DNA of 64,000 nucleotides from Eledone cirrhosa (GCA_964016885.1 OZ024743.1:343170001-343234000), one strand, 5' to 3'; counted from the first letter of the stretch, positions 9,133 to 45,985 are shown. Notes: generated by a model not told the origin, from the letters alone. Numbers and translations: made by a program.

Positions 9133-9346
9133 GGTGGCTGCCAACTCGTTTTCGAGTACGGCCACTACTTTATATCCATGTAGGAGAACCCCTACCGATC
9201 CGCTGAACGAGTGTGACTTTTTAGTCCAGCCAGCGACTTGAAAACTCTGGTACAAACACTACACTTGTGACAATTATTGACACATAGTGCTGGGCCCATG
9301 GCACCATGTGACGACAAGTGCAGAGAGATCGCCAGATATAAAGCAA
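9133..9346 (-). mobile_element. RTE-derived non-autonomous element type X, 3' part
   Basis: Same sequence as the copies at 22963 and 24389; encodes a C2H2 remnant CSVCTRVFKSLAGLKSH; (TATG)n on both sides. Confidence 0.75.
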
Positions 9347-9400
9347 TACATACATACATACATACATACATACATACATACATACATACATACATACATA

Positions 9401-9650
9401 CAATCCATTAAAAATATGTAAAACATTCCAAAAATTCTGTACAGATACAAAGCATATGCACATGCACACATACAACTCAAAACATACACATCCACACATA
9501 CAGTAACATCCATACCTGCATACATGCAGACATGCGTACATACCTTGATGTTGTGTAAATTCCAATGAGTGATTCTTGTATCTATGTTAGAAACTGACTC
9601 TCCCTCTCTCTCTATTGGCAAACATTTGTGAAATTATAGAACCAGAAGAA
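9401..9650 (+). mobile_element. R4-clade family A 3' end within (CATA)n
   Basis: Matches the 3' UTR of the 12973 and 35478 copies; ends accagaagaa|catacataca; (CATA)n also upstream. Confidence 0.85.
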
Positions 9651-9660
9651 CATACATACA

Positions 9661-10213
9661 TGAGGATTGCAGCATGTTCACAGACGATTGCCGTCTCTTA
9701 TAGATTCTTCATTGTCATCCTATTAGCGTCCATGACTTCGTAGATGACTTTGTAGACCAGCTGTAGATCTGCATGGTTTACGACACAGGTGACAAAAGAG
9801 AGTTGTGCTTTCCACAGGACCGGTGGTGGCACCCTGTGGGACACAATCTTTATGTACCACCATGTGTCTTTTTAGTTCGGAACTAGTTCTACACACTTCG
9901 TTGCATATCACACACGTTGTTTCGCCAGGTCTTTGTTGAGTCGTGTTGCGGGTGGTTATTCAGGTGTTTAATATAACCAGCCTCGGAGAGGAGTACACGC
10001 TGACAGAAATTGCATGTCCAACTACTGATGACTTCATCGAGACTGTGAGCACAGCCCTTCCGGAGCTAACGCTTCAGTTGTTTATGTTCCAGACGACATT
10101 CCTCAAAAGTTTTACAACTGCCCTTTATGCGCTTTCTCCATGTAGCCCTATTTAGAGCTATCTACTTCCAGTTGTCTATATCAAATGCCAGCTCTTTGAG
10201 GTTGTTCTTAGAA
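9661..10213 (-). mobile_element. RTE LINE 3' end with two C-terminal C2H2-like fingers and a (TATG)n tail
   Basis: KNNLKELAFDIDNW..ALNRATWRKRI..CKTFE, then CNEVCRTSSELKRHMVVH and CHLCRKPCRSTAGLQSHLRSH. Confidence 0.7.
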
Positions 10214-10949
10214 GGAGGCGGTGATGAGGATTAGGAAGAGATGCTTAAAGCATTGCGAAAGAATTATACATTTAGAAATATATAATAGATTACATCTCTG
10301 TGTTCGTGTTCTTCATATATTTGAAAAACCAACAAAGTTAATTACAAATTTAATACATTTAGTTTAATGTTCGAAGTAAAAGTTAAAGTATGCTTTATAA
10401 CTACACAATAAAGATAAATTCTACCTCCGCGAGAGTCAAATTCATAACTTAAATCTTAGGTAATAAATGACATGGCCACTACCACCACCCACAAAAAAAA
10501 GGAAACAGTAACAATGTCTTACACAATTAGTGCCTGCGCGTATCGACCTATTCTCAGCTGAGTATTAACAAGTCGCTCTACGCATTACACCAGTGCAACG
10601 AAAAAATTCAATTGAATTAATAGTAAGATGTAATAAGATTTATACACTGAGTTACTTGATCAAAACGCACAACTTTCCTTTTTATATCATCATGAGCCGG
10701 CATTTGATCAGATCATAGTATAAATTAAGAAATAAGAAAAAGTTAATAAGCGATTAAACTTGTACGATATTCAATTTAATGTTTAAAGTGAAGTTATTTC
10801 AAGTGCTTTGTACGCTCACGCAAATAAAGATAAAGTAGATCTCGCCTGGAGTTAAGCTCACAATGTGTGTGTAGCTAGATTTTAATGGAATAACAAAGAA
10901 AATTGAAGCTGGCCAATATTACAATATTCGCAATATTAGCGCTATGCAC

Positions 10950-11600
10950 AGCCAACAAAATCTTCACACTGCAGCAGGTCTTCGAGAAATCATGGAAGTA
11001 TTGCCAAGAGGTATATTCGTGTTTTGTAGACCTCGAAAAGACATATGACCGCGTTCCTCAGCACGTGCTGTGGAAGATTCTGTCGGAGTATGGGTCAGCT
11101 TCTTATTACCCTGATGTCTCTATACGAATGCCCGAGTATTCATGTTCGGATAAATGGTGCTAAATCGAAACCATTCAATGTGAAAGTCGGACTCTGCCAA
11201 GGGTGCCTACTGTCACCTCACCTGTTCATTATTTTCATAGACAAGATTATCATGCGCAGCCGGGTTGGAAATGTCACGACTGGCAATTGTATAATCATCG
11301 GCTAGATTTTGCAGACGACATGGCCTTACTTAATTCGGCAGAAGGTGATCTCCGACTTTCACTTGATTTGATGCCGAGTGCTGCATGGCTGGAATGAAAA
11401 TCAGTGCTGCGAAAACTGAGACACTTCTCTTCTCAGGGAAGCATGCGCAGTGCACTCTATATGTGAATGGAATTCCACTGAAGCAGGTGGAGAAGTTCAA
11501 GTATCTCCGGGCCGTATTCATGAGTGATGGAAGGTAGGAGACAAATTAAGTGCAAGAATTGCAGGAGCAGGTGCAGTAATGCGCCAACTTTAGCATTCGG
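10950..11600 (+). mobile_element. RTE-clade LINE RT fragment (degenerate)
   Basis: IFTLQQVFEK..FVDLEKTYDRVP; GLCQGCLLSPHLF; FADDMALL; GMKISAAKT; KQVEKFKYL. Confidence 0.85.
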
Positions 11601-11608
11601 TAATCATA

Positions 11609-11644
<36 letters not shown>

Positions 11645-11648
<4 letters not shown>

Positions 11649-11750
11649 GCGTCTTGCTCAAAGACATAACGCGCCGTCCAGTCTAGGAATCGAGCCCATG
11701 GTCCTATGATCGTGAGTTCAACATCCTAGCCACTAGGCCATACACCTTCA
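11645..11750 (-). mobile_element. tRNA-derived SINE head (family 2)
   Basis: Reverse complement resembles the 26121 SINE head: A/B boxes plus gtctttgagcaagacgctt. Confidence 0.6.
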
Positions 11751-11754
11751 TGAC

Positions 11755-11890
11755 AACAACGTGACCTTAATCATCTGGGATATGCCTATCCAAACTGACA
11801 AGGAGGTCAAGACAAACCGTCCAGTTATAATAATCGCGGACTAGAACAAAAATACATTTATACTGTTAGATATCACGATCCCGTCTGATC
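11755..11890 (+). mobile_element. R4-like restriction-like endonuclease fragment (divergent family)
   Basis: Translates IIWDMPIQTDKEVKTNRPVIII..ILLDITIPSD. Confidence 0.6.
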
Positions 11891-11969
11891 AAAATACTGC
11901 CTGAAAAAAATTGGGAAAACTTTTCAAACACAAGAATAACAAAGTCGAAATAATTTTGCTGTGAGTTAT

Positions 11970-12246
11970 GAAGAAGAAGAAGAAGAAGAAGAAGAAGAAG
12001 AAGAAGAAGAAGAAGAAGAAGAAGAAGAAGAAGAAGAAGAAGAAGGAGAAGGAGAAGGAGGAGAAGAAGAAGAAGAAGAAGAAGAAGAAGAAGAAGAAGA
12101 AGAAGAAGAAGAAGGAGGAGGAGGAGAAGGAGAAGGAAAAGGAGGAGAAGAAGAAGAAGAAGAAGAAGAAGAAGAAGAAGAAGAAGAAGAAGAAGAAGAA
12201 GAAGAAGAAGAAGAAGAAGAAGAAGAAGAAGAAGAAGGAGAAGAAG
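11970..12246. repeat. (GAA)n/(GGA)n trinucleotide microsatellite
   Basis: Directly visible. Confidence 0.95.
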
Positions 12247-12531
12247 GTGATTGGACATCCGTTTCCTTGTAGCTCTGCTGGTGGCAGGGCGCAAGTGCAA
12301 CGCAAAGCCCCACAGAGCTAGAGCAAAAGTTAACAACAGCCCACTAACTCCAGACTAAACAGAAACAGATGGTTTGATTCTGCCCTGAGACATAGCAATA
12401 GTGTTTCAGAAAAGTACATTTGCCGACGTGGGCATATATTAAGGTGCGCAAAATTTCCTGGTCTATCATCCCTGTTAGATAAGGCACTGGCATCAAATGT
12501 ATCTTCGCTCCCTGTTTGATACACACACCCA

Positions 12532-12589
<58 letters not shown>

Positions 12590-12655
12590 CCATTTTTATA
12601 TTAAATATTTATACTCATATGTATTGAGTACCCCCGATTGAACCCGGGATAAACA

Positions 12656-12972: not shown

Positions 12973-14493
12973 TCTGTAATAAAGAACGCGTAACCAGGGA
13001 ATACTACACCCGATTAAGAAAGATCTAGTCATCGGAACTCTCTGCGCAAAACAAAACAGTGGCTCACAATGTGTTTGCTGTGCCTGTCCTAACACCAACG
13101 TTTGGAATACTCAATTGGACGATAGACGAAATCCGAGCAGTTGATGTTGGAACTCGAAAAATACTGAACAACACCGGAAACTTCCACATCAACAGTGACA
13201 TAGACCGCCTTTACTTGAAACGTAAGCAGGGAGGCAGAAGCCTAACATCAGTCCAGACAACATTTGAATGTCGCATCATATCTCTCCGACAACATCTACG
13301 AACCTCGAAGCGTAGGAGCCCGTTTCTCGAACAAGTCTATCTGCATGAAACAGATAAGATCATGAGAGTTGGGAAGGAACTCCTCGAGAGATATTCCTTC
13401 TGTGATAATCAAAAACTCACTCCCGGGGACGTCGCTCAGCAGTATCGCAGTGAATCCATGGATGAAAAACTGCATGCCTATCAGCAAAAAATCATGCATG
13501 GATATGTTGCCAGGAAGCTCCAGAGTGAGAGTAATATAGATAAGGAAAGTAGTCTATCTTGGACCAACAATTTGAAGGATACGCTTTTGCAATCCAGGAA
13601 GAGGAGATTAACACGAAATACCTGATTCACAAAAGAGATAGGGATGCAGGCAAAACACCTAGATGTGATAACAACTGCAGACTCTGCAGAACTAACATCG
13701 AGGATATCACCCATGTCATCACCAGCTGCCCAAAGATGTCATCGCGGTACTATCTACCTATGAGGCAAGATGTAGTGGCCAAAACACTGTACAATGCAAT
13801 TCGTAAAAAAGATAGCCCGATAATAAACACATTAAAGCTACAGCAATGTGGAAGACATCCATGTACATAATATGAAAGAGTACTGGTGGAATGTTCCAGT
13901 AAAAACCCCAATAAAAAGCAGGCATAACAGACCAGATATTATGATATGGGACAGGGAGAAGAAAGCATGCACAGTAGTGGAAATTAGCTACCCAGCAGAT
14001 GCCAATATAATATCAAAGATTAGTGAAAAGGAGAATATTTATGCAGAAATGATGAGAAATCTGCAGATACTCCACCCTGATTACACCTTCATATTTATGC
14101 CTGTGATTAATGGGGCACTGGGATATGTTAGTAACTGCCTCAATACAAATCTTGAGAAGCTAGGCTTCACAGGAACAGAAAGAACACAACTAGTTAGGAA
14201 ATTACAAGTACAATCCATTAATGGAACCGTAAAAATATGTAAAACATTCCAAAAATGTTGCATCTAATAACTGCATATACACATGTACAGATGCAAAGCA
14301 TATACACATGCACACATACAACTCAAAACATACACATCCACATATACAATAACATCCATATCTACACATGCATGCATACATACATATCTACCTAGTTGAT
14401 GTTGTGTAAATTCCAATGAGAGAGTCTTGTGTCTATGTTAGAAACCGACTCTCTCTATTGGTAAAACTTTGTGAAATTATAAAACCAGAAAAA
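12973..14493 (+). mobile_element. R4/Dong-clade non-LTR retrotransposon, family A (5' truncated)
   Basis: Thumb region AHNVFAVPVLTPTFG; zinc knuckle CRLC..HVITSC; endonuclease YWWN..HNRPDI..VEISYP..EKENIY; 3' end joins (CATA)n at 14494-14612. Confidence 0.92.
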
Positions 14494-14623
14494 CATACAT
14501 ACATACATACATACATACATACATACATACATACATACATACATACATACATACATACATACATACATACATACATACATACATACATACATACATACAT
14601 ACATACATACATAGCTAGCTAGT

Positions 14624-15180
14624 TGTGATAGCTAGAACCATCTGGTGCGCACTTAGGAAAACAAAATTAAAAACAAAGGAGGAGGAATATGTTGAGACAG
14701 ATGGCACTAAGGAATACTGGTGGAACCTGAAAATAAAAGCTGCCATCAAATTAAAGCACAACCGGCCTGATATTGTTGTTTTGGAGCACACAATGAAAAC
14801 GTGCTCCGTTGTAGAGATCAGCTGCCCACTTGATGTAAACGTTGTCAGAAAAATACAGGAGAAGGAGGACATCTACGGACCATTGATGAGGAGTTTGCAG
14901 ATCCAGTATCCAAGATACACTTTCAGCTTCATACCCATCATTATTGAGCTACAGGTTATATACCAACCCGCTTGCACCAAAGTATGACTGAACTTGGATT
15001 TGTGGACAAAGAATGCAACCCCCTAATTCATAGACTACCAAATGGCTGCGATATCTGGCACCTTCAAAATTTGCAAAACATTCTTGCGATTCAAGAGAAG
15101 GCAATTTCTTTTCTTTTACAACCTTGCCAGCAGAAAGGTGGCCGGTCAAAAATGTACTCGAAATTAAGAGAAAAAGAAAC
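14624..15180 (+). mobile_element. R4-clade family B 3' part
   Basis: EYWWNLKIK..HNRPDIVV..VEISCP..EKEDIY; homologous to 44983-45549. Confidence 0.88.
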
Positions 15181-18582: not shown

Positions 18583-18583
18583 C

Positions 18584-18779: not shown

Positions 18780-19310
18780 TCTACGCCGACTTATTCCTGG
18801 GTGGGGCTTGGGCCAGAGTCCTCAAGCACGCCTTCCAGTGTGATCTCTCAATTCAATGAAGTAGTAGCTATTACCTGGAGTGACTCTCTGATCTCCGAGC
18901 TACGCACTCTATTGAGTAATGTTACTCCAAAGACCCTTCGGGTGAATCCTATTTCAGCCGCTTGTATTTGGGATCTTATTCTTTCTGTCATTACACAAGA
19001 TTTATGACCATATGTATGGGTTGGCACGAATACCGAATTGACTTTTACACTTACCTCCCTTCTTCTGATAACCGAATGCTGAAGCTGGCGCTTTACTCCA
19101 CCGACTCATGTAATTCTTGCAGTTAATTCAGCCTCCATCACTTGGAAACATGGCCCCGAAATACTTATACTTCTCCACCTGATTCACTGGAACTCCACTC
19201 ACATGTAGAGTGCACTGCACAGACTTCCTTGAGAGGACGAGTGTCTCAGTCTTTGCAGCACATATTTTCATTCCAGCCATGCAGCAGTCGGCAACAAACA
19301 TATCAAGTAC
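18780..19310 (-). mobile_element. RTE LINE fragment
   Basis: AGMKICAAKTE..NQVEKYKYFG, then IQAAEIGFTRRVFGVTLL; same family as 10950 and 39370. Confidence 0.75.
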
Positions 19311-19589
19311 CCTGCCAATGACTGGCATTCTTTTCTGCATATGTTGCAATAAAAAAGAAGCCTTTTCGATTGGCTACAGCGAGCTATGCTGATGCAACAC
19401 ATGTGAAACTATGGTGACAGATATCCAAATAGAGTAGGTCAACATCATTGGTTGCCATCTAGCTGCAGTTTTTTATCAGTTTTCCTTCGCCTGTCAGATT
19501 ACAGAAAATGGTACACCTTTAGGCTACGGCCAGCCTCATGAACCTGTAACATATCCTGAATAAGCAATGCCTGTGCTTTGAAGGTTTTT

Positions 19590-19983
19590 TAAGTGAGGAA
19601 AGGCCTTGCACTCGACCAATCCCACTCGCTGAGCATCGAAAACACTACCAGAAAAGGAGAACTGGTCAACATCATCGGATGTTTCCGAAGCCACAGGTTT
19701 TTTTTTTTTCAGGGTTTCCCTTTCCTAGAAAGGTGTTGTGACAACAACTGGGGGCCTTTCACTTCCAGGTGGGCGAAAAAAAATGTACTATTTGGATGGC
19801 CATTGACTCTGTTGAGTTCCTCCGCCCTTTGCCGGGTCTTGTATTTCATCCCGCAGGGTGTCCAAATATCACCCTCCTCACCAAGCTAGCTTCGTGGGGT
19901 TGCCGGTTTAGTCGCCGACGACCCGACTGTGAGACAGGTTGTCCTGGGTTACACGTTACCAGTAGCACTCGTGAGCGACCTGA
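19590..19983 (-). mobile_element. RTE-derived non-autonomous element (type Y-like), 5' part
   Basis: Homologous to 20577-21205. Confidence 0.7.
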
Positions 19984-20067
19984 CATACACACATACATAC
20001 ATACATACATGCATACATACAGACAGACAGACAGACAGACAGACAGAAGACAGACAGAAAGACAGAC

Positions 20068-20398
20068 AAGTCTTGAGAAGCTGGGCTTCACAGAACCAGG
20101 AAGAACAATACTAGTTAGGAAAGTACAAGTACAATCCATTAATGGAACAGTAAAAATATGTAAAACATTCCAAAAATTCTGCATGTACTCATGTACAGAT
20201 ACAAAACATATGCACATGCACGCATCTAACTCAAAACATACACATTCACACATACAATAACAGCCATACCCGCACACAGACGCATGCATACATCTAGTTG
20301 GTGTTGTTTATTTCCAAAGAAAGAGTCATGTGTCTATGTTAGAAACCGACTATCTGTCTCTATTCGTAAACATTTATAAAATTATATAACCAGAAGAA
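20068..20398 (+). mobile_element. R4-clade family A 3' end
   Basis: LEKLGFT..VQSINGTVKICKTFQK; ends cagaagaa|catacatac. Confidence 0.85.
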
Positions 20399-20576
20399 CA
20401 TACATACATACATACATACATACATACATACATACTCTGCTAAGATTATTGCAATCGTTTGTCAGATTCAAATGTTGACGCTCAGATATGGCTTTTCAAA
20501 CCTGCTAGAGACTTGCACTCCTTCGCACATGGATCTCCCTGGCCTCAGGTCTTGCATTATACATACATACATACAT

Positions 20577-21205
20577 GATGATGGCTGCCCCCTCGTTATC
20601 GAGTATGGCCATTGCACGATATACCATTATTAATAATTATTAATTAATTCTATCATGCAATGCCTGTGCATGAAGATATTTTTTAAAGTGAGGAAAGGCT
20701 GTGCACTGAGCCAATCCCACTCTCTGAGCGACAGTAGCTATAACCCGAAAAGAAGAAAAGATCAACAACATCGGTAACTACTGAGCCGCAGGTTTTATAT
20801 CAGAGTTATCCCAGTTTCCCGAGTTGCCTTCTCCTAGAACAATGCCCTGACAAAGGCTAGGGGTCCTTCACTCCCAGTGGTTTAACCGCGCGACCGTGTG
20901 TCCAGCCCGACTATTTCTATGTCCCCGCGCATATACATACAGATGCACCCATGTATATACACATATACATATACATACATATGCACATGTGTATATACAT
21001 ACATATGCACATGTGTATATACATATTTACACACTTTCGGATGGCCGTTGACTCTTATGACTTCTTCCGCCCCTTGTTAGGTTTTGTTTTTTGTCCTGCA
21101 GGGTGTCGAAAATCCCCCTCCTCACCAAGTAAACTTGGTGGTGTTGCCGGTTTAGTCGCCGGCGACTCGACCATGCGAAAGGTTGTACTGGATTACATGT
21201 TACCA
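20577..21205 (-). mobile_element. RTE-derived non-autonomous element type Y
   Basis: Repeated at 23393 and 38090; RTE-5'UTR-like ..ctaggagaaggcaactc.. motif; (TATG)n tail. Confidence 0.75.
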
Positions 21206-21864: not shown

Positions 21865-22515
21865 TCGTTGGATTGACAGAATTGTTAGAGCAGCGAAAAA
21901 AACTGTTGTATTTATTTGGCAAGGGCTCTTCATTTTTTTGGTGAGTGGGTTTCAAATCCCACTGAGGTCAACTTTGTTTTTTATACTACTGGGTCGATAA
22001 AATAAAGTACCAGTTAAGTACTGAGGTCGATTTACTCGATTTTGCACAACTCTCTCAACTTTCTAGCCTTGTGCTTAAATTAGAAATCATTATTGTTGTT
22101 GGCGGTGGATTGGCAGTATCGGTAGAGGGTCGGACGCCATGCATTGCAGCATAGAGTTACGGCCTTTTACGATCTGAGTTCAAATCCCGCCGAGGTAAAC
22201 TTTGCCTTTCATCCTTACGGGGTCGATAAAATAAAGTACCAGTAATGCACTGGGATAATTGCTCGCCTTGTGCCAAAAGTTGAAACAATTATTGTTGTTG
22301 TTATATATGGTGGATTAGCAGAATGAGTTGCTTTGTAGTATTTATTTGGCGAGGGCTCTTTATATTTTGAGTTCAAATCCCGCTGAGATCAACTTTGCTT
22401 TTCAGCCTTTCGGGGGTCGATAAAATAAAGTACCAGTCAAAGTCCTGGGGTCAATATAATCGACTTTCCTCTCCTCCTAAAATTGCTGGTCTACAACCAA
22501 AATTAGAAAGAATTG
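21865..22515 (+). mobile_element. Three tandem tRNA-derived SINEs (family 1)
   Basis: A box tggcagtatcgg, B box gttcaaatc and body ..gcctttcatcc..gtcgataaaataaagtaccag.. repeated three times. Confidence 0.8.
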
Positions 22516-22539: not shown

Positions 22540-22788
22540 CCAACCTGTCTGAATTAAAGTACTGCTGAACTTCGATTCTTTGAGAAAGAACGTAACATCT
22601 TATTTCATACACTCAGAGAATCACGATATCTGGGACAATAACATTCTGCAAGAACATCTTAAAATTTGAAGGATAAATAGGCGCGCAAAGGATAACAGAT
22701 GAAACAAAACCCTTTTCTTTAAAACCTAGTCACCGGGCAGGTGACCAATCAAAATAACCGCTAAATCCCGCAGTCAAGAAGAGACACT
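22540..22788 (+). mobile_element. R4-clade family C 3' end (diverged)
   Basis: ISGTITFCKNILKFEG* resembles the C-termini of families A and B; 3' UTR hairpin; followed by (TACA)n. Confidence 0.6.
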
Positions 22789-22962: not shown

Positions 22963-23330
22963 GGTGGTGGCTGCCAACTCGTTTTCGAGTACGGCCACTA
23001 CTTTATATCCATGTAGGAGAACCCCTACTGATGCGCTGAACGAGTGTGACTTTTTAGTCCAGCCAGCGACTTGAAAACTCTGGTACAAACACTACACCTG
23101 TGACAATTATTGACACATAGTGCTGGGCTCATGGTACCATGTGACGACAGGTGCAGAGAGATCTCCAGATATAAAGCAATACCTGTGCCGTGAAGCTTTT
23201 ATAGTGAGCAAAGGCACTGCACAAAGCCAGTCCCACTCTCTTAACCAAGATGATATTTACCAAAAAGAAGAACAGGTCAACATCATTGGATACCATCAGG
23301 GCTGCAGGTGTTATATCAGAGTTTTCCTTC
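22963..23330 (-). mobile_element. RTE-derived element type X (5' truncated)
   Basis: Matches the 24389 copy; (CATA)n on both sides. Confidence 0.8.
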
Positions 23331-23392: not shown

Positions 23393-23928
23393 GGTGGCTG
23401 CCCCCTCGTTATCGAGTATGGCCATTGCACGATATACCATTATTAATTATATCGTGCAATGCCTGTGCGTGAAGATATTTTTTAAAGTGAGGAAAGACTG
23501 CACTGAGCCAATCCCACTCTCTGAGCGACAGTAGCTATAACCCGAAAAGAAGAAAAGATCAACATCATCGGTAACTACTGAGCCGCAGGTTTTATATCGG
23601 AGTTATCCCAGTTTCCCGAGTGCTTTCTCCTAGAAGAATGCCCTGATAAAGGCTAGGGGTCCTTCACTCCCAGTGGTTTAACCGCGCGACCGTGTGTCCA
23701 GCCCGACTATTTCTATGTCTCCGCGCATATACATACAGATGCACCCATGTATATACACATATACATATACATACATATGCACTTGTGTATATACATACAT
23801 ATGCACATGTGTATATACATATTTACACACTTTCGGATAGCCGTTGACCCTTATGAGTTCTTCCGCCCTTTGTCAGGTTTTGTTTTTTGTCCTGCAGGGT
23901 GTCCAAAATCACCCTCCTCACGAAGTAG
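23393..23928 (-). mobile_element. RTE-derived element type Y
   Basis: Matches the 20577 copy; (CATA)n on both sides. Confidence 0.8.
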
Positions 23929-23944
23929 ACATACATACATACAT

Positions 23945-24310
23945 GATGGCTGCCCCCTCGTCATCGAGTATGGCCATTGCACGAGAAAAAATATATATAT
24001 ATATATTAATAACAATAATAATAATAATAATAATAACAACAATAATAATAACGACAACAACAATAATAATATACATATATATATATATACACACACGCAC
24101 ACATAAACATATCTATACACACACACGATAGCAATTAACAGCGCTGCGATCAAATGTGGCTTTTTAGCCCAGCCAATGATCTAAAATGTCTTGCACAGAG
24201 TCGGCAACCAAAACATTCACTGGGAATAGCCGGCTGTGGTTGGAGTTCATGTACTTTTGCATGTCGTTTGAGCCCTCCTGCTGATTTACATTCTCTACCA
24301 CATGCTTGGC
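23945..24310 (-). mobile_element. RTE LINE 3' end with two C2H2 fingers, sharing the type Y terminus
   Basis: CQACGRECKSAGGLKRHAKVH and CRLCARHFRSLAGLKSHI*; terminal 40 bp match the type Y terminus; interrupted by a TA/AAT tract. Confidence 0.65.
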
Positions 24311-24388: not shown

Positions 24389-24982
24389 GGTGGCTGCCAA
24401 CTCGTTTTCGAGTACGGCCACTACTTTATATCCATGTAGGAGAACCCCTACAGATGCGCTGAACGAGTCTGACTTTTTAGTCCAGCCAGCGACTTGAAAA
24501 CTCTGGTACAAACACTACACCTGTGACAATTATTGACACATAGTGCTGGGCCCATGGTACCATGTAACGACAAGTGCAGAGAGATCTCCAGATATAAAGC
24601 AATGCCTGTGCCGTGAAGCTTTTATAGTGAGCAAAGGCACTGCACAAAGCCAGTCCCGCTCTCTTAACCAAGATGATGTTTACCAAAAAGAAGAACAAGT
24701 CAACATCATTGGATACCATCAGGGTTGCAGGTGTTATATCAGAGTTTTCCTTCTCCTAGAATTCTGCCTTGACAAAGGCTAAGGGGTCATCTCTCCCGGT
24801 GATTTTGGATGGCCATTGACTCTTAAGAGCTCCTTTGCCCTTTGACAGGTTTTGTTTTTAGTCCTGCAGGATGTCCAAAGTCACCCTCCTCACCAAGAAA
24901 CCTTGGTGGGGTTGCCAGTTTAGTCGCCAACGACCCGACCATGAGACAGGTTGTACTGGGATACATGTTACCAGTAGCACCA
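24389..24982 (-). mobile_element. RTE-derived element type X, near full length (about 594 bp)
   Basis: 5' part shared with type Y, 3' part carries the C2H2 remnant; flanked by (CATA)n at 24310-24388 and 24984-25090. Confidence 0.8.
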
Positions 24983-25470
24983 ACATACATACATACATAC
25001 ATACATACATACATACATACATACATACATACATACATACATACATACATACATACATACATACATACATACATACATACATACATACATGGCTTCTGTG
25101 GTGACCTCTATGACCTACTCTCCTGAGGCAAATTCAGCCACGCTCATTGCACATAAAATCATCTTGAACATCTGAAAATCCTGGTAAAGTAATAGACGTA
25201 TAAAGTACTATGTATAAAGTCATTCTAAAATGTAGTAAGTACTTGTTAGGCCATGCTTCGTTAAGAAGATCTAATAATACCGAAACATGTCCGAAGTTGT
25301 CATTATCAAAAATCAGACTTACTCCCCAATGCATATCTCCAATAAATGTTTATTCAATTTAAATTTCGAAGTTCTTTCCCTTGTCTTTCTTGATAAGAAT
25401 AGTCATTAACCTCACTGGTGCTTCTTCTCGTAATTAGATTTCTCGCAATGATGTTTCTTCTCCCAATTAA

Positions 25471-25689
25471 TAATGGTTTCTTATATAGGCACAAGGCCAG
25501 CAATTTGGGGGGAGGGGAAAGTCGATTATATCGACCCCGGCTGCATGACTGGTGCTTTATTTTATCGACCCCGTAAGGATGAAAGGCAAAGTTAACCTCG
25601 GCGGGATTTGAACTCAGACTGTAAAGGCCGTAACTCTATGCTGCTAAGCATGGCGTCCGACCCTCTACCGATACTGCCAATCCACCGCC
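25471..25689 (-). mobile_element. tRNA-derived SINE family 1
   Basis: Reverse complement of the 22102 copy. Confidence 0.8.
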
Positions 25690-26120
25690 CAATTAATAAT
25701 AACGAGTGTATTTTTTAGTAGATGAAAAATTCTTTTTTGGCCACTACATTAAGCATGCTGGTCTGCATTTAACTAAAAACAGAGGTACACAAGATGCTTT
25801 ATATCTTTTTTCTTCTTTTTTTCGCCCTTAGATCCTGATGGAGTTGTATGGGCGCTGTTCTGACACACTGCTTATCTTGAAGCCCACCCCTTTCTAGGTC
25901 GAAACACAACCGATTTCTTCCAAAGAGAGAGAGAATTGGGATGGAGGGAAAAACAGAATTGGACTGGAATTTTATTTATCGACCTCAAAAAGATGAAAGA
26001 CAAAGTTGATCACGTCGAGATTTGAACTCAGAGCGTAGAAAGCTAGAACAAATACCGAAGTATTTTTATCCGAAGCCTAAATGACTTTGCTAATTTTCCG
26101 TCTTTATGTTTTTACAATGA

Positions 26121-30217: not shown

Positions 30218-30610
30218 TAGAGCGTCGGACAACATGCTTAGTGGGGTAGACCTTTGGCCCTTTATGTTCTGAATTCAAATCTTGCCGAAGTTAACTTTGC
30301 CTTTCATCCTTACAGGGTCGATAAAATAAAGTACCAGTAATGCACTGGGGTCAATTTGGTCAACTTTTCCCTCCCTAAAAATTGCTGGCCTTGTACCTAT
30401 AGTAGAAATCATTATTATTATTATTGGATTGGCAGTATCGGTAGAGCGTCGGACGCCATGTTTTGCAGCATAGTTACGGCCCTTTATAATCTGAATTCAA
30501 ATCCCGTCGAGGTTAACTTTGCCTTTCATCCTTACGTGGTCGATAAAATAAAGTACCAGTAATGTACTGGAGTAATTGCTGGCCTTGTTCCAAAAGTAGA
30601 AACAATTATT
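30217..30610 (+). mobile_element. Two tandem SINE family 1 copies
   Basis: Same A/B boxes and body as 22102. Confidence 0.8.
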
Positions 30611-32642: not shown

Positions 32643-32849
32643 ATATAAAAGGATAAGGATCCCCTTTGGTCACGAACGACCATGGTATTTGCATCTAGAT
32701 AGTTTAGATAGTTCCCCTCCGAGGCACAAGTCTGGGCAAGGTTGTTTGTGGAAGACCAACAGTGGTCCATGCGTACCGATCTACCCTCTCCACCCCACCA
32801 GTGTTGTCCAAGGAAAAGACAATAAAAAAATATACGCTGATAAGTGAAA

Positions 32850-33033
32850 TAATTGTTTCGATTTTTGGCACAAGGCCAACAATTACCCAGTACATTACTG
32901 GTACTTTATTTTATCGACCCCGTAAGGATGAAAGGCAAAGTTAACCTCGGCGGGATTTGAACTCAGATCATAAAGGGACGTAACTCTATGCTTCAAAGCT
33001 TGGTGTCCGACTCTCTACCGATACTGCCAATCC
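32850..33033 (-). mobile_element. SINE family 1
   Basis: Homology to other copies. Confidence 0.8.
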
Positions 33034-34863: not shown

Positions 34864-34895
<32 letters not shown>

Positions 34896-34930
34896 CATAC
34901 ATACATACATACATACATACATACATACAT

Positions 34931-35040
34931 ACATTCCAAAAATTCTGCATCTAATAACTGCATGTATACATGTATCTATGTTAGAAACCGACTCTCTCTC
35001 TTTATTTGTAAACATTTATAAAATTATAAAACCAGAAGAA
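34931..35040 (+). mobile_element. R4 family A 3' stub within (CATA)n
   Basis: Ends accagaagaa|catacg. Confidence 0.8.
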
Positions 35041-35080
35041 CATACGTACATACATACATACGTACGTACGTACGTACATA

Positions 35081-35386
35081 CTACGAACCACCGGTGAGGA
35101 ATTTGCAGATCCAGTAGCCAAGATGCACCACCAGCTTTATACCTAACATTATTGGAGCTACAGAATATATACCAACCCGCCTGAACTTGGAGTTGTGGAG
35201 AAAGAATATAACTCCTTCATTCCGAGGTTACAAATGGTCGCGATATCTGGAACCTTCAAAACACTCTTACAATTTAAAGGATGAATTATTGCACAAAAGA
35301 CGACGGAAATTTTCTTTTCTTTACAACCTTGTCACGGGGAAGGTGGCAGGTCAAAAATAAACTCGAAATTAAGAGAAAGAGAAGAA
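35081..35386 (+). mobile_element. R4 family B-like 3' end within (CATA)n
   Basis: Homologous to 45240-45549; ends gagaagaa|catac. Confidence 0.75.
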
Positions 35387-35477
35387 CATACGTACATACA
35401 TACATACATACATACATACATACATACATACATACATACATACATACATACATACATACATACATACATACATACAT

Positions 35478-38078
35478 CCAGAAAGACATAGATTCCTTTT
35501 GGAGAAAAGTATGGGGTGAAAAGAAGAATTTCAACCAAGATGCAGTGTGGCTAAGAGAAATCCAAAAGAACTATTGCTCCTACACTACAACAAAAACATA
35601 CGAAATAAGTGAGGGTACCCTTGAGACTGTGATAGGAAACTCCAAGATAAGAAAACACCAGGAAGAGACATGATTGTCGGCTACTGGTACAAAAAACTAA
35701 TATTCTATCGGAGGTATCTTACTGACCTCTACCAACAAGTTCTTAAGGAGGATACACTTATACCAGGATGGTTGACATTAGCACAAACGTTACTGGTCCC
35801 CAAGAACAAAGACACCCACTTGGCAAAAAACTACCGACCCATTGCATGCCAGAACCTGATGTATAAGATGTATACAGCCTGCCTGAACCTATTCCTCCAA
35901 GATTACTGTGAAAATAATAACATCATCCCAGATGAACAAGCAGCTGGAAAGAAAGGGGTTTGGGGATGTGCTGAACAACTCCTAATCAACAAAACTGCGA
36001 TGTCGGAGGTGCGACAACTTAGGAGGAATATGACTACAGTCTGGCTGGACTACAGGAAAGCTTTCGATTCTGTTCCCCACTCTTGGATGATAGAGGCCCT
36101 CCAACTTGCTAAAGTCCCAGACATTATTGTCAGAGCCATAGAGAGGCTGTCTTCTTCTTGGGCTACTATCCTAAGGTTAAAGACAGAGAGGGAGGACTCT
36201 ATTTTCACTGATAAAATAAAATATTGCAGGGGTATATTTCAGGGGGACAGTCTCTCTCTGGGATATTGTTCATCTTGTCATTAAACCCCTTGTCCTTTCT
36301 GCTCAAGAAATGTGAGGGATACATCATTGGCTCACAGGAGGACAGAAATACGAAACTAACCCATAATTTCTTTGTGGACGATCTGAAACTCTATACCAAA
36401 ACATGGATGGGATGAAGAAAAATCTTGACCTGGTTACAACATTCTCAAAGGATATAGGAATGGAGTTTGGCCAAGATAAATGCTCATACATGACTGTAGA
36501 GCGGGGAAAAACAACAACCCAATCTAGCAACATTGTCATCAATGGTCTAACTGTTTCACCGATATCTGATGAGGACTGCTACAGATACCTGGGGATAGAT
36601 GAGAACATATCCTATAATGGTATCTGTAATAAAGAACGCGTAACCAGAGAATACTACACCCGATTAAGAAAGATCTGGTCATCGGAACTCTCTGCGCAAA
36701 ACAAAACAGTGGCTCACAATGTGTTTGCTGTGTCTGTCCTAACACCAACGTTTGGAATACTCAATTGGACGATAGACGAAATCCGAGCAGTTGATGTTGG
36801 AACTCGAAAAATACTGAACAACACCGGAAACTTCCACATCAACAGTGACATAGACCGCCTTTACTTGAAAGATATGATGTCGCATCATATCTCTCCGACA
36901 ACATCTACGAACCTCGAAGCGTAGGAGTCCGTTTCTCGAGCAAGTCTATCTGCATGAAACAGATAAGATCGTGAGAGTTGGGAAGGAACTCCTTGAGAGA
37001 TATTCCCTGTGTGATAATCAATAACTCACACCCAGGGATGTCGCTCAGCAGTATCGCAGTGAATCCATGGATGAAAAACTGCATGTTTATAAGCAAAAAA
37101 ATCATGCATGGATATGTTGCCAGGAAGCTCCAGAGTGAGAGTAATATAGATAAGGAAAGTAGTCTATCTTGGACCAACAACCGCTATATTGGCTCCCACT
37201 TTGAAGGATACGCTTTTGCAATCCAGGAACAGGAGATTAGCACGAAATACCTGATTCACAAAAGAGATAGGGATGCAGGCAAAACACCTAGATGTGATAA
37301 CAAGTGCAGACTCTGCAGAACTAACATCGAGGATATCACCCATGTCATCAGCAGCTGCCCAAAGATGTCATCGCGGTACTATCTACCTATGAGGGATGAT
37401 GTAGTGGCCAAAACACTGTACAATGCAGTTCGTAAAAAAGATAGCCCGATAATAAACACATTAAAAGCTACAGCAATGTGGAAGACATCCATGTACATCA
37501 TATGAAAGAGTACTGGTGGAATGTTCCAGTAAAAACCCCAACAAAATGCAGGCATAACAGACCAGATATTATGACAGGGAGAAGAAAACATACACAGTAG
37601 TGGAAATTAGCTGCCCAGCAGATGTCAATATAATATCAAAGATTAGCGAAAAGGAGAATATTTATGCAGAACTGATGAGAAATATGCAGATACTCCACCC
37701 TGATTGCACCTTCAGATTTATGCCTGTGATTATTGGGGCACTGGGATATGTTAGTAACTGCCTCAATACAAATCTTGAGAAGCTAGGCTTCACAGGAACA
37801 GAAAGAACACAACTAGTTAGGAAGTTACATGTACTATCCATTAATGGAACAGTAAAAATATGTAAACAAATTTGCATCTAATAACTGCATATACACATGT
37901 ACAGATACAAAGCATATACACATGCACACATACAACTCAAAACATACACATCCACACATACAATAACATCCATATCTACACATGCATGCATACATACATA
38001 TCTATCTAGTTGATGTTGTGTAAATTCCAATGAGAGAGTCTATTGGTAAAACTTTGTGAAATTATAAAACCAGAAGAA
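35478..38078 (+). mobile_element. R4/Dong-clade retrotransposon family A, longest copy (RT + CCHC + endonuclease, frameshifted)
   Basis: NYRPIAC, EQAAGKKG, WLDYRKAFDSVPH, GIFQGDSLS, FFVDDLKLY, YRYLG, CRLC..H..SC, HNRPDI, EISCP; (CATA)n at both junctions. Confidence 0.95.
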
Positions 38079-38089: not shown

Positions 38090-38628
38090 GATGGCTGCCC
38101 CCTCGTTATCGAGTATGGCCATTGCACGATATATCATCATTAATAATTATTAATTAATTCTATCATGCAATGCCTGTGCGTGAAGATATTTTTTTAAGTG
38201 CACTGAGCACTGTGCACTGAGCCAATCCCACTCTCTGACCGACAGTAGCTATAACCCGAAAAGAAGAAAAGATCAACATTATCGGTAACTACTGAGCCGC
38301 AGCTTTTATATCGGAGTTATCCCAGTTTCCTGAGTTGCCTTCCCCTAGAAAACTGCCCTGACAAAGGTTAGGGGTCCTTCACTCCCAGTGGTTTAACCAC
38401 GCGGTACATGTGTATATACATATTTACACACTTTCGGATGGCCGTTGCATCTTATGAGTTCTTCCGCCCTTTGTCAGGTTTTGTTTTTTGTCCTGCAGGG
38501 TGTCCAAAATCACCCTCCTCACCAAGTAAACTTGGTGGGGTTGCCGGTTTAGTCGCCGACGACCCGACCATGCGACAGGTTTTCTGGGCTACATGTTACC
38601 AGTAGTACTCCAGAGTGACCCGACATAA
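38090..38628 (-). mobile_element. RTE-derived element type Y
   Basis: Matches the 20577 copy; tail-to-tail with the R4 copy. Confidence 0.8.
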
Positions 38629-38642
38629 CGTACATACATACA

Positions 38643-38982
38643 TATGGGACAGGGAAAAGAAGGTATGCACAGTAGTGGAAGTTAGCTACCAAGCAGATAC
38701 CAATATAATATCAAAGATTAGCGAAAAGGAGAATATTTATGCAGAACTGGTGAGTAATTTGACGATACTCCACCCTGATTATGCATGCAGATTTATGCCT
38801 GTGATTATTGGGGCACTGGGATATGTTAGTAATTGCCTCAGTACAAATCTTGAGAAGCTGGGCTTTACAGAAACAGAAAGAACACGACTAATTAGGAAAT
38901 TACAAGAACAATAAAAATATATAAAACATTCCAAAAATGTTGCATTTAATAACTGCATGTGCACATGTGTAGATGCAAAACA
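38643..38982 (+). mobile_element. R4 family A endonuclease fragment
   Basis: IWDREKKVCTVVEVSY..EKENIY; begins in (CATA)n. Confidence 0.85.
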
Positions 38983-39369
38983 TATTTTGGTGGGTTATAT
39001 TACAAATATTTTTCCTCACTAAAATTTGATTTCTCTTGTTTTTTTGCAGAAAATTTGAACTCTGAACTGGAGGTTTAAGTACAAATTGACAATCACAGCG
39101 ATAAATTATTTGCAACAGAAATGGAGAGGTAGAAATCTGATGAGGGTTTCTCAATGAAATAAAGTAGTTTCTATATTTCCTTGCTGTTGTTTCTTGTTTG
39201 AATTATTACATGATAGCAGAAAAACCGCCCTTCGGCCAGTTTTCTGCTAGCATATGTAGTGTGTTTATTGGTATTATACGCAAATATATATATGTAAATT
39301 GAAATGTAAATTGACAATATTTTTTTCTTCTTCGCCCACTTATTTCTGAGAGGGTCGTGGGGGCAGAGT

Positions 39370-39935
39370 CCTTCTCAAACACTCCTTCCAGCGAGTCTGT
39401 CAGAAGCAAACATCTCTAACTGATGCAGCTGGATCCCAAAGCGTGACCAGCCAAGCTCAGGGTCTACCTCTGGGTCTCTTGCCGGTTGGTTTTGCCTGTA
39501 AAATGTGTCCAGCGATTCTTTACTGAGACATTATAACCACATGCTTATAATATCGGAGTTGTGATCTCTCAATTCGGAGAAGTAGCGACTCTACCAGGAG
39601 TGACTCTCTGGTCTCTGAGTTATGCACTTTATCGAGTAACGTTACTCCAAAGACCCTTCGGAGGAATCCAATTTCTGCCGCTTTTATTTGCAATTGTATT
39701 CTTTTAGTCAAGATTCATGATCCTCAGTAAGAGTTGGAAGGAATACCAGGAAGACAGCGAGTTTGGCTTTTACACATACCCCCTTCTTCTGATTGCTAAA
39801 TGGTGGGGCTAGCGCATTACTACATCAGCTTTTGCAATTCTTGCACTTAATTCAGCATCCTGCATTCCATCACTCATGAACACGGCTCCAAGATACTTGA
39901 ACTTCTCTAACTGCTTCAGTAGAACTCCATACACA
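39370..39935 (-). mobile_element. RTE LINE 3' fragment
   Basis: IKAAEIGFLRRVFGVTLLDKVHNSETRESL..RSQLRYY. Confidence 0.8.
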
Positions 39936-40174
39936 TGTATATACATTTGAGGGATTTCTGTCCACCCGTCCATCACACAATGTGTTTATGTGACATCATC
40001 ATTCTCATCACCATCATGTGTTTATGTGTTTGTGTGAATGTATGTGTGTGTAAAAGGAAGGAAAGGGATACACACATATATGTCTCTAACTTAAAAACAG
40101 TGACGCACACACACCTACATGTCTCTAATTTAAGAACATCGACAAACTCGCGCGTGCACATACACACACTGTCC

Positions 40175-42610: not shown

Positions 42611-42669
42611 ATATTTTGATTATGTGAATTTCTTCATTTATTAATATTCTGAATAATATATATATATTT

Positions 42670-42817
42670 CTCAAGATCACATATAGAAGTTATGGACCCA
42701 ACATCCTTATCGGTCTGCTCTTCAGACTGGTGATTCACTGCATTTTTGTTGAATCACTAGTTTGAAGCTCAGGTCGATAATGGAGTTGGGTCCATAATTT
42801 CTATGGGTGACCTTGAG
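42670..42817. repeat. About 148-nt imperfect hairpin
   Basis: ctcaagatcac..ttatggacccaac..gtgattca / tgaatcac..gttgggtccataa..gtgaccttgag. Confidence 0.8.
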
Positions 42818-43560
42818 TCAATCCTCTGCAAAACGCGTGTAACAAGTCAATTCACAAGTCGATGAGTGTATAAGAATTTTCATAAAATCGTAGGAATCTC
42901 AAATGCGGAAGTAGATGAAATCAGCCAGCTGATATTATGCATAGAAAAATTTACATTAAAATATAGCCTCATACTCATAAAAACGGAAGAATGGGGAGAG
43001 ATGGAGGGAGAATAAAAGAGAATATGATGAGAAATGAGAGAAGTTATAGAGAGAAAGAAGAGAAGAAGAACAGGAATGAGAACGATAGAGCAATTTTTGT
43101 TTGTTTTGTTTTCTAGAATTACCAAAGAAAGAAAAAAATACAGAAAAAACAATGGAGAAAGGATGAAGATGTAAACCAAATAGAAACAAAGAACGATAGC
43201 GTCGTAATCACTTCATCAGCTTACTTCTAACCAACATGATTTTGCGCGGGGGAAAGGAAGTACCATGTATTTAAGGTTTCGTAATTCTCCCCCAAAACAA
43301 TTTTGCTCCATCATTCTCATTCCCGCTTTTCTTCTCTTCTCTCTCTACATATATACTTCTCTCATTTCTTATCATATGCTTTAGACTCTCTTTATTCTAA
43401 AGTTCATGCATGAATGTATTTGGTCATCTACTAAAAACGTTGTATTGCATCCATTTTTAATATTCTTGCTTTCCTCATGCGGTGGTTTCTGGGAAAGCAT
43501 TTGTTATAATGTTTTGCTAAGGAAACTCTGTGTATGAAAAAATATGTTGATGAACCGTAA

Positions 43561-43591
<31 letters not shown>

Positions 43592-43625
43592 CATACATAC
43601 ATACATACATACATACATACATACA

Positions 43626-45549
43626 GTCGTGGTGTGGCTGGACTATCAAAAAACATTTGATAGTGTACCTCATGGGTGGATTGTTAAGGCTTTACAGTTA
43701 ACCAAAGTCCCACAACCACTGGTAGCTGCTGTTGAACGTCTGACCAAGAACTGGTACACCAATTTGATCCTTAGAAGTGAGAAGGGCAAGTTAAGACTGA
43801 TAAGATACATTACCAGAAGGGCATCTTTCAGGGTGATAGCTTGTCAGTGCTACTCTTCGTTCTCTCACTAAATCCACTATCTTACCTACTCAGGAAACAA
43901 GGTGGACAAAGAAGTGGGTCCAGAAGTATCTCCCATCTTTTCTTTGTTGATGACCTGAAGTTGTATGGGCCAAATATCAATGACATCAAGAAACAATTGG
44001 ACTTCATTACACAATTTTCAACAGACATCAAAATGAAATTTGGTGTGTCCAAGTGTGCATATTTGGAAGTAAAACGTGGAAGAGCTGTGCCCTCCTCTAG
44101 AAATCTAGAGATGAACGGCCTGACAATACAACCTCTACAGTCAGGTGACAACTACAGATATCTTGGACAGGGTGAGAATGTCAGATATGATGGACCCATA
44201 AATAAGGAGAGAACCAGAACTGAATACCTCAGAAGAGTAAAGAAAATATGGTCATCAGAACTGTCAGCGTACAACAAGTACATTGCCCACAATACTTATG
44301 CTGTGCCAATTCTAACGCCAACATTTGGCCTGCTGAACTGGTCATTGCAAGAACTAAGTGAGATGGATGTTAGAACTCGCAAACTTCTCAGTGTTACTGG
44401 GAACTTTAACATCAATGGTGATGTGGATAGGCTATACTTCTCACGCAAGGAAGGTGGCCGGGGTCTAAAATCCATATTAACATCATGAGACTCGGATAGT
44501 AACACTGAAGCAACATCTTCAACAGAGGAAAAAGGTTGGCAACCATCTTGCCCAGGTTTATGAGCATGAAGAAAAAAATATCATTAGGATAGCCACTGAT
44601 CTGGAGAAGAGATATGGAATAAAGCCTGATATAAATCTCTCACCCAGAGAAATCGGGAGATCCTATTCAATGTTCAAACAAGATAAAAAAATTGACCAAT
44701 TTACAGAAAAAGTTGTGCATGGATACTGAGACGTAAAACTCAGGCCATAGAGGGGATAAACCACTCAAAAAGCCTGGCATGGAGTTCCGACAAGTTTATG
44801 ACATCACACCTTGAGGGATATCTCTATGCAATACAGAAACAAGAACTCCCTACCAAATATCTGCTGCACAAAAGGGGAGGGCCATCAGCTGACAATAAAT
44901 GTAGGCTATGTAAAACAAAGATCGAGGATGTAAGCCACATTGTTGCCAGCTGCGAAAGAATGTCATCTCGCTACTACCTCCCATGAGACACGATGGGATA
45001 GCTAGAACCATCTGGAACGCACTTCGGAAAACAAAATTAACAACAAACGAGGAAGAATATATTGAGACAGATGGCACTAAGGAATACTGGTGGAACCTGA
45101 AAATAAAAACTGCCACCAAATTAAAGCACAACCGGCCTGATATTGTTGTTTGGGACCACACATTGAAAACGTGTTCTGTTGTGGAGATCAGCTGCCCACT
45201 TGATGTAAACGTTGTCAGAAAAATACAGGAAGAGGACATCTACGGACCATTGATGAAGAGTTTACAAATCCAGTATCCAGGATACACCTTTAGCTTCATA
45301 CCCATCATTATTGGAGCTACGGGTTATATACCAACCCGCTTGGACCAAAGTATGACTGAACTTGGATTTGCGGACAAAGAGCGCAGCTCCCTAATTCATA
45401 GTTTACAAATGGCTGCGATAGCTGACACCTTCAAAATTTGAAAAACATTCTTGCGATTCAAGGGATAACAATTTCTTTTCTTTTACAACCTTGCCACCAG
45501 GAAGGTGGCCGGTCAAAAAAATATACTCGAAATTAAGAGAAAGAGAGAA
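43626..45549 (+). mobile_element. R4/Dong-clade retrotransposon family B (5' truncated, degenerate)
   Basis: WLDYQKTFDSVPH, LFFVDDLKLY, YRYLG, CRLC..H..SC, RHD, HNRPDI, EISCP; (CATA)n 5' (43562-43625) and 3' (45550-45560). Confidence 0.93.
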
Positions 45550-45985
45550 CATACATACATGTCATAACTGTTCATCATATATTTTCTGACCATCAGACAT
45601 GTTGTAGCATGAAAGGAAGAAAGAAGTATACATGTTGTTTTATGGTTCTATTTTCTATCTTTATATATGGTTCCTGTTTAATTAAATAATTAGTATGGTC
45701 TCCTCTTATCATTTAAACCGAAAAACTGTTCTTTCATTGATCGTAATAGAGGAGCTATCTCTTATCTTGATCACGAAGCAGATAACTTTAAATATACAAT
45801 AAGGCTGCTTTCTGATATCAGGTCGTTTGATTATTGTGTAATGGATATTTCATTAGTAGTAAATACAAGTTCGTTCGTTTTTGCTTGTTTGTTAATTTGT
45901 TGTTGTTGTTGTTTTCTTATATGCTTAAATGAAGTGTATAAACCACTCTAAGCAAAAGTTTTCTTCCATTCTTTTATTCGTATAT

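Follow-up and report, generated by a model that had tools for sequence, protein, structure and literature searches.

Among retrotransposons that lack long terminal repeats (non-LTR), the R4/Dong clade is defined by a reverse transcriptase (RT), a restriction-enzyme-like (REL) endonuclease and a divergent Myb domain, and its members insert into (TAA)n in most insects, molluscs and cnidarians (PMC7998251; here and below, PMC numbers stand for the passages of those papers that deal with the elements named). Dong, DongAg and DongBg occupy TAA repeats and Waldo occupies ACAY (PMC3812793), and Dong carries a hepatitis delta virus (HDV)-like ribozyme at its 5' end (PMC3774820). Togen, a NeSL-related element, targets (TG)n (PMC4640811), and the 5' junctions of R2 form through annealing, joining, snap-back or extra-template routes (PMC11371274). 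Dong-R4 elements have been recorded in cephalopods, with no target given in the passages concerned (PMC13282606, PMC8967140, PMC9115989, PMC10294476). Here we describe two families of elements, A and B, from a 64-kb window (the whole stretch of DNA analysed) of the 3.0-Gb, microsatellite-rich genome of Eledone cirrhosa. We consider it likely that A and B are non-LTR retrotransposons with a restriction-like endonuclease (RLE), probably of the R4/Dong clade, that insert into (CATA)n in one orientation and one phase and add repeat units at their 5' ends.

The initial annotation had proposed from the window that (CATA)n is a target of these elements and not just a tail, and the junctions of copies elsewhere in the genome bear this out. 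From 333 sequences of the same genome we kept a two-ended set of 178 distinct copies (58 A, 120 B), drawn from the best search matches and their neighbours, in which the 3' end is present, the terminal match is at least 88% identical and 130 nt of flank are available on each side. Counting a junction as positive when a perfect run of 8 nt or more in the CATA phase lay no further than 10 nt from the element end, we found a run at the 5' end of 152 copies, at the 3' end of 158 and at both ends of 137, against a background of 0.7% among 20,000 random positions in genome samples of 60 evenly spaced 10-kb pieces (600 kb). Runs in the TATG phase, corresponding to the opposite strand, number 0 at the 5' end and 1 at the 3' end. 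The 5' flanks are thus not random, and the 5' run occurs in 120/144 truncated copies, in 32/34 full-length copies and, within a 105-copy set, in 21 of the 27 solo copies, which have no A, B or element X (a second retroelement, discussed below) within 260 nt on either side.

The fixed phase that had been read from the window was recovered as well, since, counted from a conserved anchor, the 3' repeat begins after 5 nt in 53/58 A copies and after 4 nt in 99/120 B copies. When the first 12 nt of the 3' flank are fitted to simple repeats, CATA is the best fit in 153 of the 178 copies, TA in 10, CA in 1, TAA in 0 and none in 14, although the 600 kb of samples contain 1031 runs of (TA)n and 198 of (CA)n that reach 12 nt, or 12 and 2.4 times the number of CATA runs (82). 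Some 3' flanks open with variants of the repeat (CATAT in 19, CACAT in 7, TATAC in 5), and because these local variants open the flanks and sometimes recur upstream, the flanks represent target DNA. Solo copies in unique or unrelated DNA possess the same junctions (L348, L101, L110, L398 and the window copy at 43626-45549; L numbers denote individual sequences). Because runs are found at both ends against so low a background, on one strand and in a fixed phase, we are very confident that CATA is a true strand- and phase-specific target. Tiny B insertions also occur between CATA arrays, one of 18 nt of the 3' end (L326) and one of about 46 nt (L104), and some long arrays that appear empty may be abortive insertions.

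Comparison of the window with full-length natural copies assigns seven pieces to A and two to B, and identifies a further piece, named C, with 72% identity to B (Table 1). This represents a local cluster, with about 10 copies in 64 kb compared with two clear copies and one weak match in the 600 kb of samples. The junctions are those that the initial annotation had listed, with 3' ends in ..AGAAGAA at 9650, 20398, 35040, 35386 and 38078, in ..AGAAAAA at 14493 and in ..GAGAA at 45549, degenerate junctions at 15180 and 22788, arrays adjoining the 5' ends at 9400, 14613, 34931, 35080, 35477, 38644 and 43625, a GACA variant at 20067, a 5' end free of any array at 12973, and no poly(A) at the element ends in the window. 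For the copy at 38642 the CATA on the 5' side is present as described, but the copy itself turned out to be incomplete, with its 3' end missing.

Families A (about 4.1 kb) and B (about 4.0-4.2 kb) are distinct, as had been suggested, with 49% amino acid identity between their proteins, but the third family that had been thought likely, C, did not hold up. The best genomic matches of C are 76-85% identical; the piece ending at 22788 matches the genome along long stretches at about 70%, twice at loci where C matches too, and was not detected by tblastn with the B protein. Given the low identity of these matches and the 72% identity of C to B, we rejected C and the 22788 piece as separate young families; judging from sequence comparison, C is an old B-like remnant and the 22788 piece probably another, though its assignment is weak. 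Eleven of the 20 long A copies that we fetched are full length, all 11 with CATA at the 5' end, and none of the 20 has a complete open frame. Among the 150 best B matches, 17 have full-length open reading frames (ORFs) of 1169-1175 codons, and FFVDDL, the CCHC knuckle (CRLC..H....C) and NRPD..VVE are present in all 17. B is a young family, because these 17 of 150 matches keep a full-length frame, and its closest pair of copies diverges by 0.23%. Full-length B copies (L333-L350) have a sharp start, ..CATA/AAATGGCG (a slash marks the junction), which we take to resemble the start of a YY1-type internal promoter, and occur with two variants of the 5' untranslated region (UTR) that differ by about 200 nt. 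Full-length A copies (L096, L101, L106) open with a degenerate CAT-like stretch, and their first 10 nt differ among copies as if joined through microhomology.

The B protein is encoded by a single 1169-aa ORF, in which the RT is followed by the CCHC knuckle and a C-terminal RLE (PD..E), and RVT_1 is detected by Pfam in the element protein. In an AlphaFold model (14-sequence alignment, pLDDT 75), the top seven structure matches are R2 proteins, and the N-terminus forms a confident three-helix bundle (residues 22-74) whose top Atlas feature match, a Rap1 Myb cluster, scores 0.85, below the 0.9 cut-off and hence a lead only. The Pfam scan of the element protein gave no Myb match, the B N-terminus has no CxxC motif and so no zinc finger signature there, and no apurinic/apyrimidinic endonuclease (APE) domain is seen in the Pfam scans or the structure model. 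On the model, the N-terminal domain is probably Myb-like. A quick IQ-TREE tree (67 RT rows, midpoint root) places A and B in separate branches of a 23-row subclade (SH-aLRT 100), nested in a 59-row group (SH-aLRT 100) that includes a Bombyx protein and (AAT)n-flanked metagenomic relatives; the closest named homologue of B, a protein of Argonauta hians with 55% identity, is its sister. At least 7 of the 18 distant relatives inspected (about 30% identity) end in (AAT)n (L111, L112, L115, L119, L128, L156, L184), and five carry AAT runs just 5' of the match, which is the Dong pattern. Among the matches listed, metagenome relatives are distant ones only; the prokaryote collection gave five distant matches and the viral collection none. 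Two Dong-like elements in bacterial assemblies, one near-complete (L414, 30% identity; 4-kb contig from a Streptomyces assembly) and one in a cyanobacterial metagenome-assembled genome (L413), are probably animal DNA contamination.

The R4/Dong affinity put forward in the initial annotation is supported by the protein architecture and by the AAT-flanked relatives, and we hold it to be highly probable that A and B belong to this clade. They are not Dong proper, because their flanks are not TAA. Two points count against the placement. The rows of the tree include no named R4, Dong or Rex6 sequence, and because of this, clade membership rests on the architecture and the AAT-flanked relatives. In addition, an Rfam scan, which took in A only, found no HDV-like ribozyme at the A 5' end, and an HDV descriptor, for which there is no validated positive control, gave zero matches for A and, for B, only off-junction matches at chance level. 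The same descriptor fires on 16 of 30 shuffles of element X, and its matches in X are therefore no evidence.

Dong of Bombyx mori, DongAg and DongBg resemble A and B in having a single ORF with RT, CCHC and RLE, no N-terminal zinc fingers and a probable Myb-like N-terminus, and Dong likewise lies in a microsatellite, flanked by repeat at either end and lacking poly(A). A and B differ from Dong in their target, (CATA)n instead of (TAA)n (PMC3812793, PMC7998251), in forming a separate long-branched subclade, and in the 5' end, where no HDV-like ribozyme was found but Dong has one (PMC3774820). The literature searched did not mention long additions of repeat at the 5' junctions of Dong. Waldo (WaldoAg1, WaldoAg2, WaldoFs1; R1 clade) is similar in its target, as ACAY includes ACAT, that is, the CATA repeat (PMC3812793), but R1 elements use an APE endonuclease whereas A and B use a C-terminal RLE, and the common target would be convergence. 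R4 of Ascaris and R2 have in common with A and B the RLE-based target-primed reverse transcription, and R2 proteins are the best structural matches; however, R4 and R2 target ribosomal DNA (rDNA), and what A and B add at the 5' end reiterates the target repeat on the same strand and is not an antisense snap-back. Togen and the HERO families, as the passages on them describe, are also RLE elements specific for microsatellites, but they belong to other clades and use other repeats. The octopus Dong-R4 annotations, which are abundant and recently active, are probably of the same lineage as A and B, given the Argonauta hians homologue; the passages on them provide counts and activity only, with no analysis of target, junctions or target site duplications (TSDs) (PMC13282606, PMC8967140, PMC9115989).

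The family and its target may already have been recorded, which we take seriously while thinking it unlikely. Curated repeat entries often note flanking repeats. An octopus Dong/R4 entry in Repbase or Dfam, or the screen of Fell et al. 2025, could be such a record, the more so as the Dong-R4 class of Octopus vulgaris is large and recently active (51 families, five of them recently active; PMC13282606), and a full-length Dong consensus is available for O. bimaculoides (PMC9115989). Yet the literature gave no CATA or ACAT target for an R4/Dong element, and it is (TAA)n that is stated as the Dong target in most insects, molluscs and cnidarians (PMC7998251). Indeed, no CATA-specific R4/Dong element was present in the literature searched, with Repbase, Dfam, Kojima and Fujiwara 2004 and Fell 2025 lying outside that search.

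If A and B insert into CATA, their junctions also retain a record of how the 5' side was completed. Among copies with an imperfect 3' flank, 34/130 show the first variant motif of that flank again in the 5' flank (permutation mean 16.2, maximum 26), and rare-variant motifs recur in 17/101 (permutation mean 7.5, maximum 16). The duplicated motif measures about 10-20 nt in clear cases, a range that includes the R4 TSD of about 13 bp, and these motifs are likely TSDs. Between the upstream duplicate and the element, 28-88 nt of near-pure CATA are found in L039, L342, L343, L377 and L398. Perfect runs of at least 40 nt are concentrated on the 5' side [89 at 5' and 31 at 3' among the 178 copies, P = 1.7e-7; 67 and 19 among the 120 B copies; 21 and 3 among the 34 full-length copies]. 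The element's own first bases are also repeated, as 8-mers from its first 30 nt recur upstream in 20/178 copies compared with 5.2 expected (maximum 13). L367 has the first 10 nt, then 64 nt of sequence that is mostly CATA, and then the real start; the corresponding figures are 15 nt and then 30 nt of repeat in L402, 10 nt and then 122 in L408, and 10 nt and then about 42 in L038. Because an insertion initiated at the 3' end of the RNA cannot leave 5' bases alone upstream, these repeats were made after a false start. The repeat added in L402 and L408 is similar to the imperfect variant present locally, an indication that target DNA served as the template. Truncated junctions without extra bases (30/53) have a mean microhomology of 1.8 nt, compared with 0.8 expected. 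L398 sits in a multicopy repeat of which 14 of 29 paralogues could be anchored, and 12 of these 14 empty paralogues carry 13-23 nt of perfect CATA, compared with 89 nt upstream of the insertion; a similar search with L373 met a nested cluster and yielded no usable empty site. On balance, we favor repeat synthesis at 5' joining as a common event.

Rearrangements were also seen beside some B copies. A full-length B in L343 (about 1000-1243) is immediately preceded by a duplication of approximately 90 nt of upstream DNA (an A 3' end and its imperfect array). B copies of L393 have a repeated unit, about 180 nt long plus array, on either side. The 5' array of L384 contains, ahead of the full-length 5' end, a fragment derived from the beginning of the B ORF, which suggests template switching within the cDNA.

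Several observations weigh against one part or another of this proposal. The 178 copies are not a random sample, and the counts are not independent because neighbouring copies share arrays. The 5' run is missing from 26/178 copies and the 3' run from 20/178; on inspection, the 26 include degenerate arrays, later insertions and internal rearrangements, as well as some true exceptions such as 12973 in the window. About half of the TSD matches are expected from chance, and some of the 20 matches of first bases upstream have another cause, namely insertion of a short interspersed element (SINE) with its own duplication (L098, L049) or a tandem copy (L397). The bias toward longer 5' arrays is absent from family A (22 and 12 of 58 at 40 nt or more, P = 0.73) and weak in the 27 solo copies (P = 0.09). 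Two of the 14 empty L398 paralogues carry 42 and 94 nt of CATA, and 4/7 long pure arrays in the random samples have no A, B or X neighbor. Finally, four read runs, searched by a method that skips repeats, gave no joint across the L398 insertion among the matches listed, and hence no orthologous empty allele.

The main rival accepts CATA as a true target but requires no new repeat, the enzyme favoring long existing arrays and integrating near their downstream edge; for example, repeated nicks would leave only the most downstream primer stably paired, with the long array remaining on the 5' side. Perfect arrays of 40-110 nt do exist with and without neighboring elements, in the same length range, those of at least 40 nt hold 28% of the CATA-array bases in the random samples (432/1557), and one empty L398 paralogue reaches 94 nt. 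What integration at the edge leaves unexplained is the repeat between the aborted first bases and the final junction (L367, L402, L408, L038) and the pure arrays between the duplicated motif and the element (L039, L342, L377, L398). We regard it as distinctly unlikely, although it may contribute part of the 5' asymmetry and may act alongside repeat synthesis.

Element X is a non-coding retroelement of about 0.6 kb, with at least three subfamilies, a fixed stem-loop at the 3' end and 5' truncations, and it occupies the same arrays as A and B in the opposite orientation; a first look gave 1294 candidates. Its 3' side adjoins ..ACAT in 15/26 and ..ATAT in 7/26 matches, with a perfect CATA run of at least 8 nt on that side in 9/26, and X prefers purine-pyrimidine repeats more loosely than A and B do. 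X presumably resembles a bipartite element derived from RTE, and no autonomous partner for it was found. X was considered as the 5' UTR of A or B and rejected, as the true 5' ends were found and are unrelated to it and X is truncated from the other side, and Rfam matches over X are low-complexity miRNA noise. X is a separate element in the same niche as A and B. Many A and B copies adjoin X and the window is a dense cluster, as they would if the real target were X, another CATA-bearing repeat or open chromatin rich in such tracts, with the link to the microsatellite secondary. However, the solo copies named above show the same junctions, phase and orientation are unchanged in the 27 solo copies, and the flanks of X are looser and its orientation opposite, and we find such a target very improbable.

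A reading in which CATA is a 3' tail that the elements encode and the RT produces by slippage, with little insertion specificity and with 5' arrays due to pile-up into the tails of other copies, receives next to no credence from us, for although 3' flanks sometimes have 1-7 nt of CATA past the duplicated motif, copies cluster head to tail and RTE elements have been described with microsatellite ends (PMC9115989), we rejected a tail-only model on the 5' flanks, which carry CATA in truncated, full-length and solo copies alike and largely refute it, as do the local variants, some recurring upstream, with which 3' flanks open.

Target-specific insertion accompanied by repeat synthesis, the reading that we prefer, may proceed as follows. 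The protein would bind a CATA-type repeat, probably via its Myb-like N-terminus and the RLE, and the flanks suggest that CATAT and CACAT are tolerated. The TATG strand would be nicked, and insertion lands just before a CATA unit, in the one phase and orientation seen at the junctions; an RNA whose 3' end continues into CAUAC for a few bases may pair with the primer. Target-primed reverse transcription would often halt early, in keeping with the many truncated copies. The top strand would then be cut about 10-20 nt downstream, a cut whose chemistry, like that of the nick, we infer from the duplication of the stretch, which is observed both in the statistics and in individual copies. Prior to sealing of the 5' end, the upstream strand might repeatedly recopy the local repeat through slippage or a switch of template, in some cases following a false start on the cDNA, and the stuttered junctions and the 5'-biased long arrays are what we observe of this step. 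Joining via 1-5 nt of microhomology would often leave 30-120 nt of new repeat, and the polymerase, we infer, would be either the RT or a host enzyme. New arrays would serve as fresh targets, resulting in nested clusters as in the window.

Table 1. Positions of family A and B pieces, CATA arrays and element X in the window (a slash separates element and repeat)
Feature	Positions	Strand	Basis
(CATA)13 array, 5' side of family A fragment	9349..9400	+	sequence inspection
Family A 3' fragment, 5'-truncated, ~86% to full-length natural copy, end ..AGAAGAA/CATAC	9401..9650	+	
Family A, 5'-truncated; thumb, CCHC, RLE; frame broken; 5' end without CATA (exception); 3' ..AGAAAAA/CATAC	12973..14493	+	
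(CATA)30 array common to A 3' end and B 5' end	14494..14613	+	
Family B, 5'-truncated, 92%; first bases stuttered (8 nt) at 5' junction; 3' flank degenerate (copy L001)	14614..15180	+	
CATA/GACA compound array, 5' side of A fragment (GACA variant at 20067)	19982..20068	+	
Family A 3' fragment, 82%, then (CATA)9; junction ..AGAAGAA/CATAC	20066..20398	+	
Old diverged 3' fragment, probably B/C-like (weak assignment), then degenerate CATA tract	22560..22788	+	
(CATA)16 array, 5' side of short A fragment	34868..34931	+	
Family A 3' fragment, ~110 nt; 3' junction ..AGAAGAA/CATAC	34931..35040	+	
C, older B-like 3' fragment, 72% to B; CATA-type tracts both sides; 3' ..AGAAGAA/CATAC	35076..35386	+	
CATA array (85 nt perfect) linking C 3' end to A 5' end	35387..35477	+	
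Family A, 2.6 kb, 5'-truncated: RT (PF00078), CCHC, RLE; frameshifted; 3' ..AGAAGAA/CATAC, then element X	35478..38078	+	
Family A internal fragment; CATA on 5' side; 3' end missing	38642..38985	+	
(CATA)15 array, 5' side of B copy	43564..43625	+	
Family B, 1.9 kb, 5'-truncated, 96.5%: RT, CCHC, RLE; frameshifted; 3' ..GAGAA/CATAC	43626..45549	+	
Element X, ~0.6-kb non-coding retroelement, same arrays, opposite orientation (one of ~8 window copies)	24389..24983	-	
Element X copies in window	9124-9347, 19562-19985, 20575-21205, 22963-23329, 23393-23929, 23945-23984, 24389-24983, 38090-38625	-	

The window contains a number of other repeats. A decayed fragment resembling another RLE region is located at 11780-11970, directly followed by (GAA)92 at 11970-12246, and gave no tblastn match with the B protein. 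RT fragments at 11000-11600, 19066-19298 and 39560-39939 have no CATA flanks and belong to another family of long interspersed elements, which we take to be RTE-like. Minus-strand open frames at 5762-6780 presumably represent a Penelope-like RT with a GIY-YIG endonuclease, to judge by their motifs, and are surrounded by an inverted repeat of 525 nt (98.7%; 4484-5008 and 7159-7683). A direct repeat of 368 nt, 100% identical, occupies 48763-49130 and 50494-50861. An abundant SINE-like repeat of about 190 nt occurs at 22101-22292, 25542-25690, 30425-30610, 32848-33033, 51114-51300, 52860-53070 and 53414-53595, and SINE-like sequence with its own duplication interrupts L098 and L049, giving these copies false 5' ends.

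The clade is known for rDNA and (TAA)n as targets, to which these elements add a new one; they combine a different repeat, young intact copies and R4/Dong architecture with signs that A and B lengthen their own target. Our broader view is a tentative one, that a hitherto unnamed R4/Dong subclade switched from TAA to a tetranucleotide, converged on the target of the APE-type Waldo elements, and builds its own landing sites, every insertion recopying the local repeat dozens of times at its 5' junction, as a major source of the genome's long perfect (CATA)n arrays and nested clusters. A pair of related proteins, one specific for TAA and the other for CATA, offers a test of how Myb-like and RLE domains change specificity, and reconstruction is unnecessary, since family B offers numerous natural ORFs that are intact and nearly identical; site-specific RLE proteins of compact size are also wanted as gene-insertion tools. 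Traces of false starts and, probably, of repeat synthesis are preserved in hundreds of natural junctions, which bears on the 5' joining of non-LTR insertions in general. If insertion indeed makes arrays, it would provide a route to the birth of microsatellites and to self-reinforcing transposon clusters in repeat-rich genomes of the cephalopod type.

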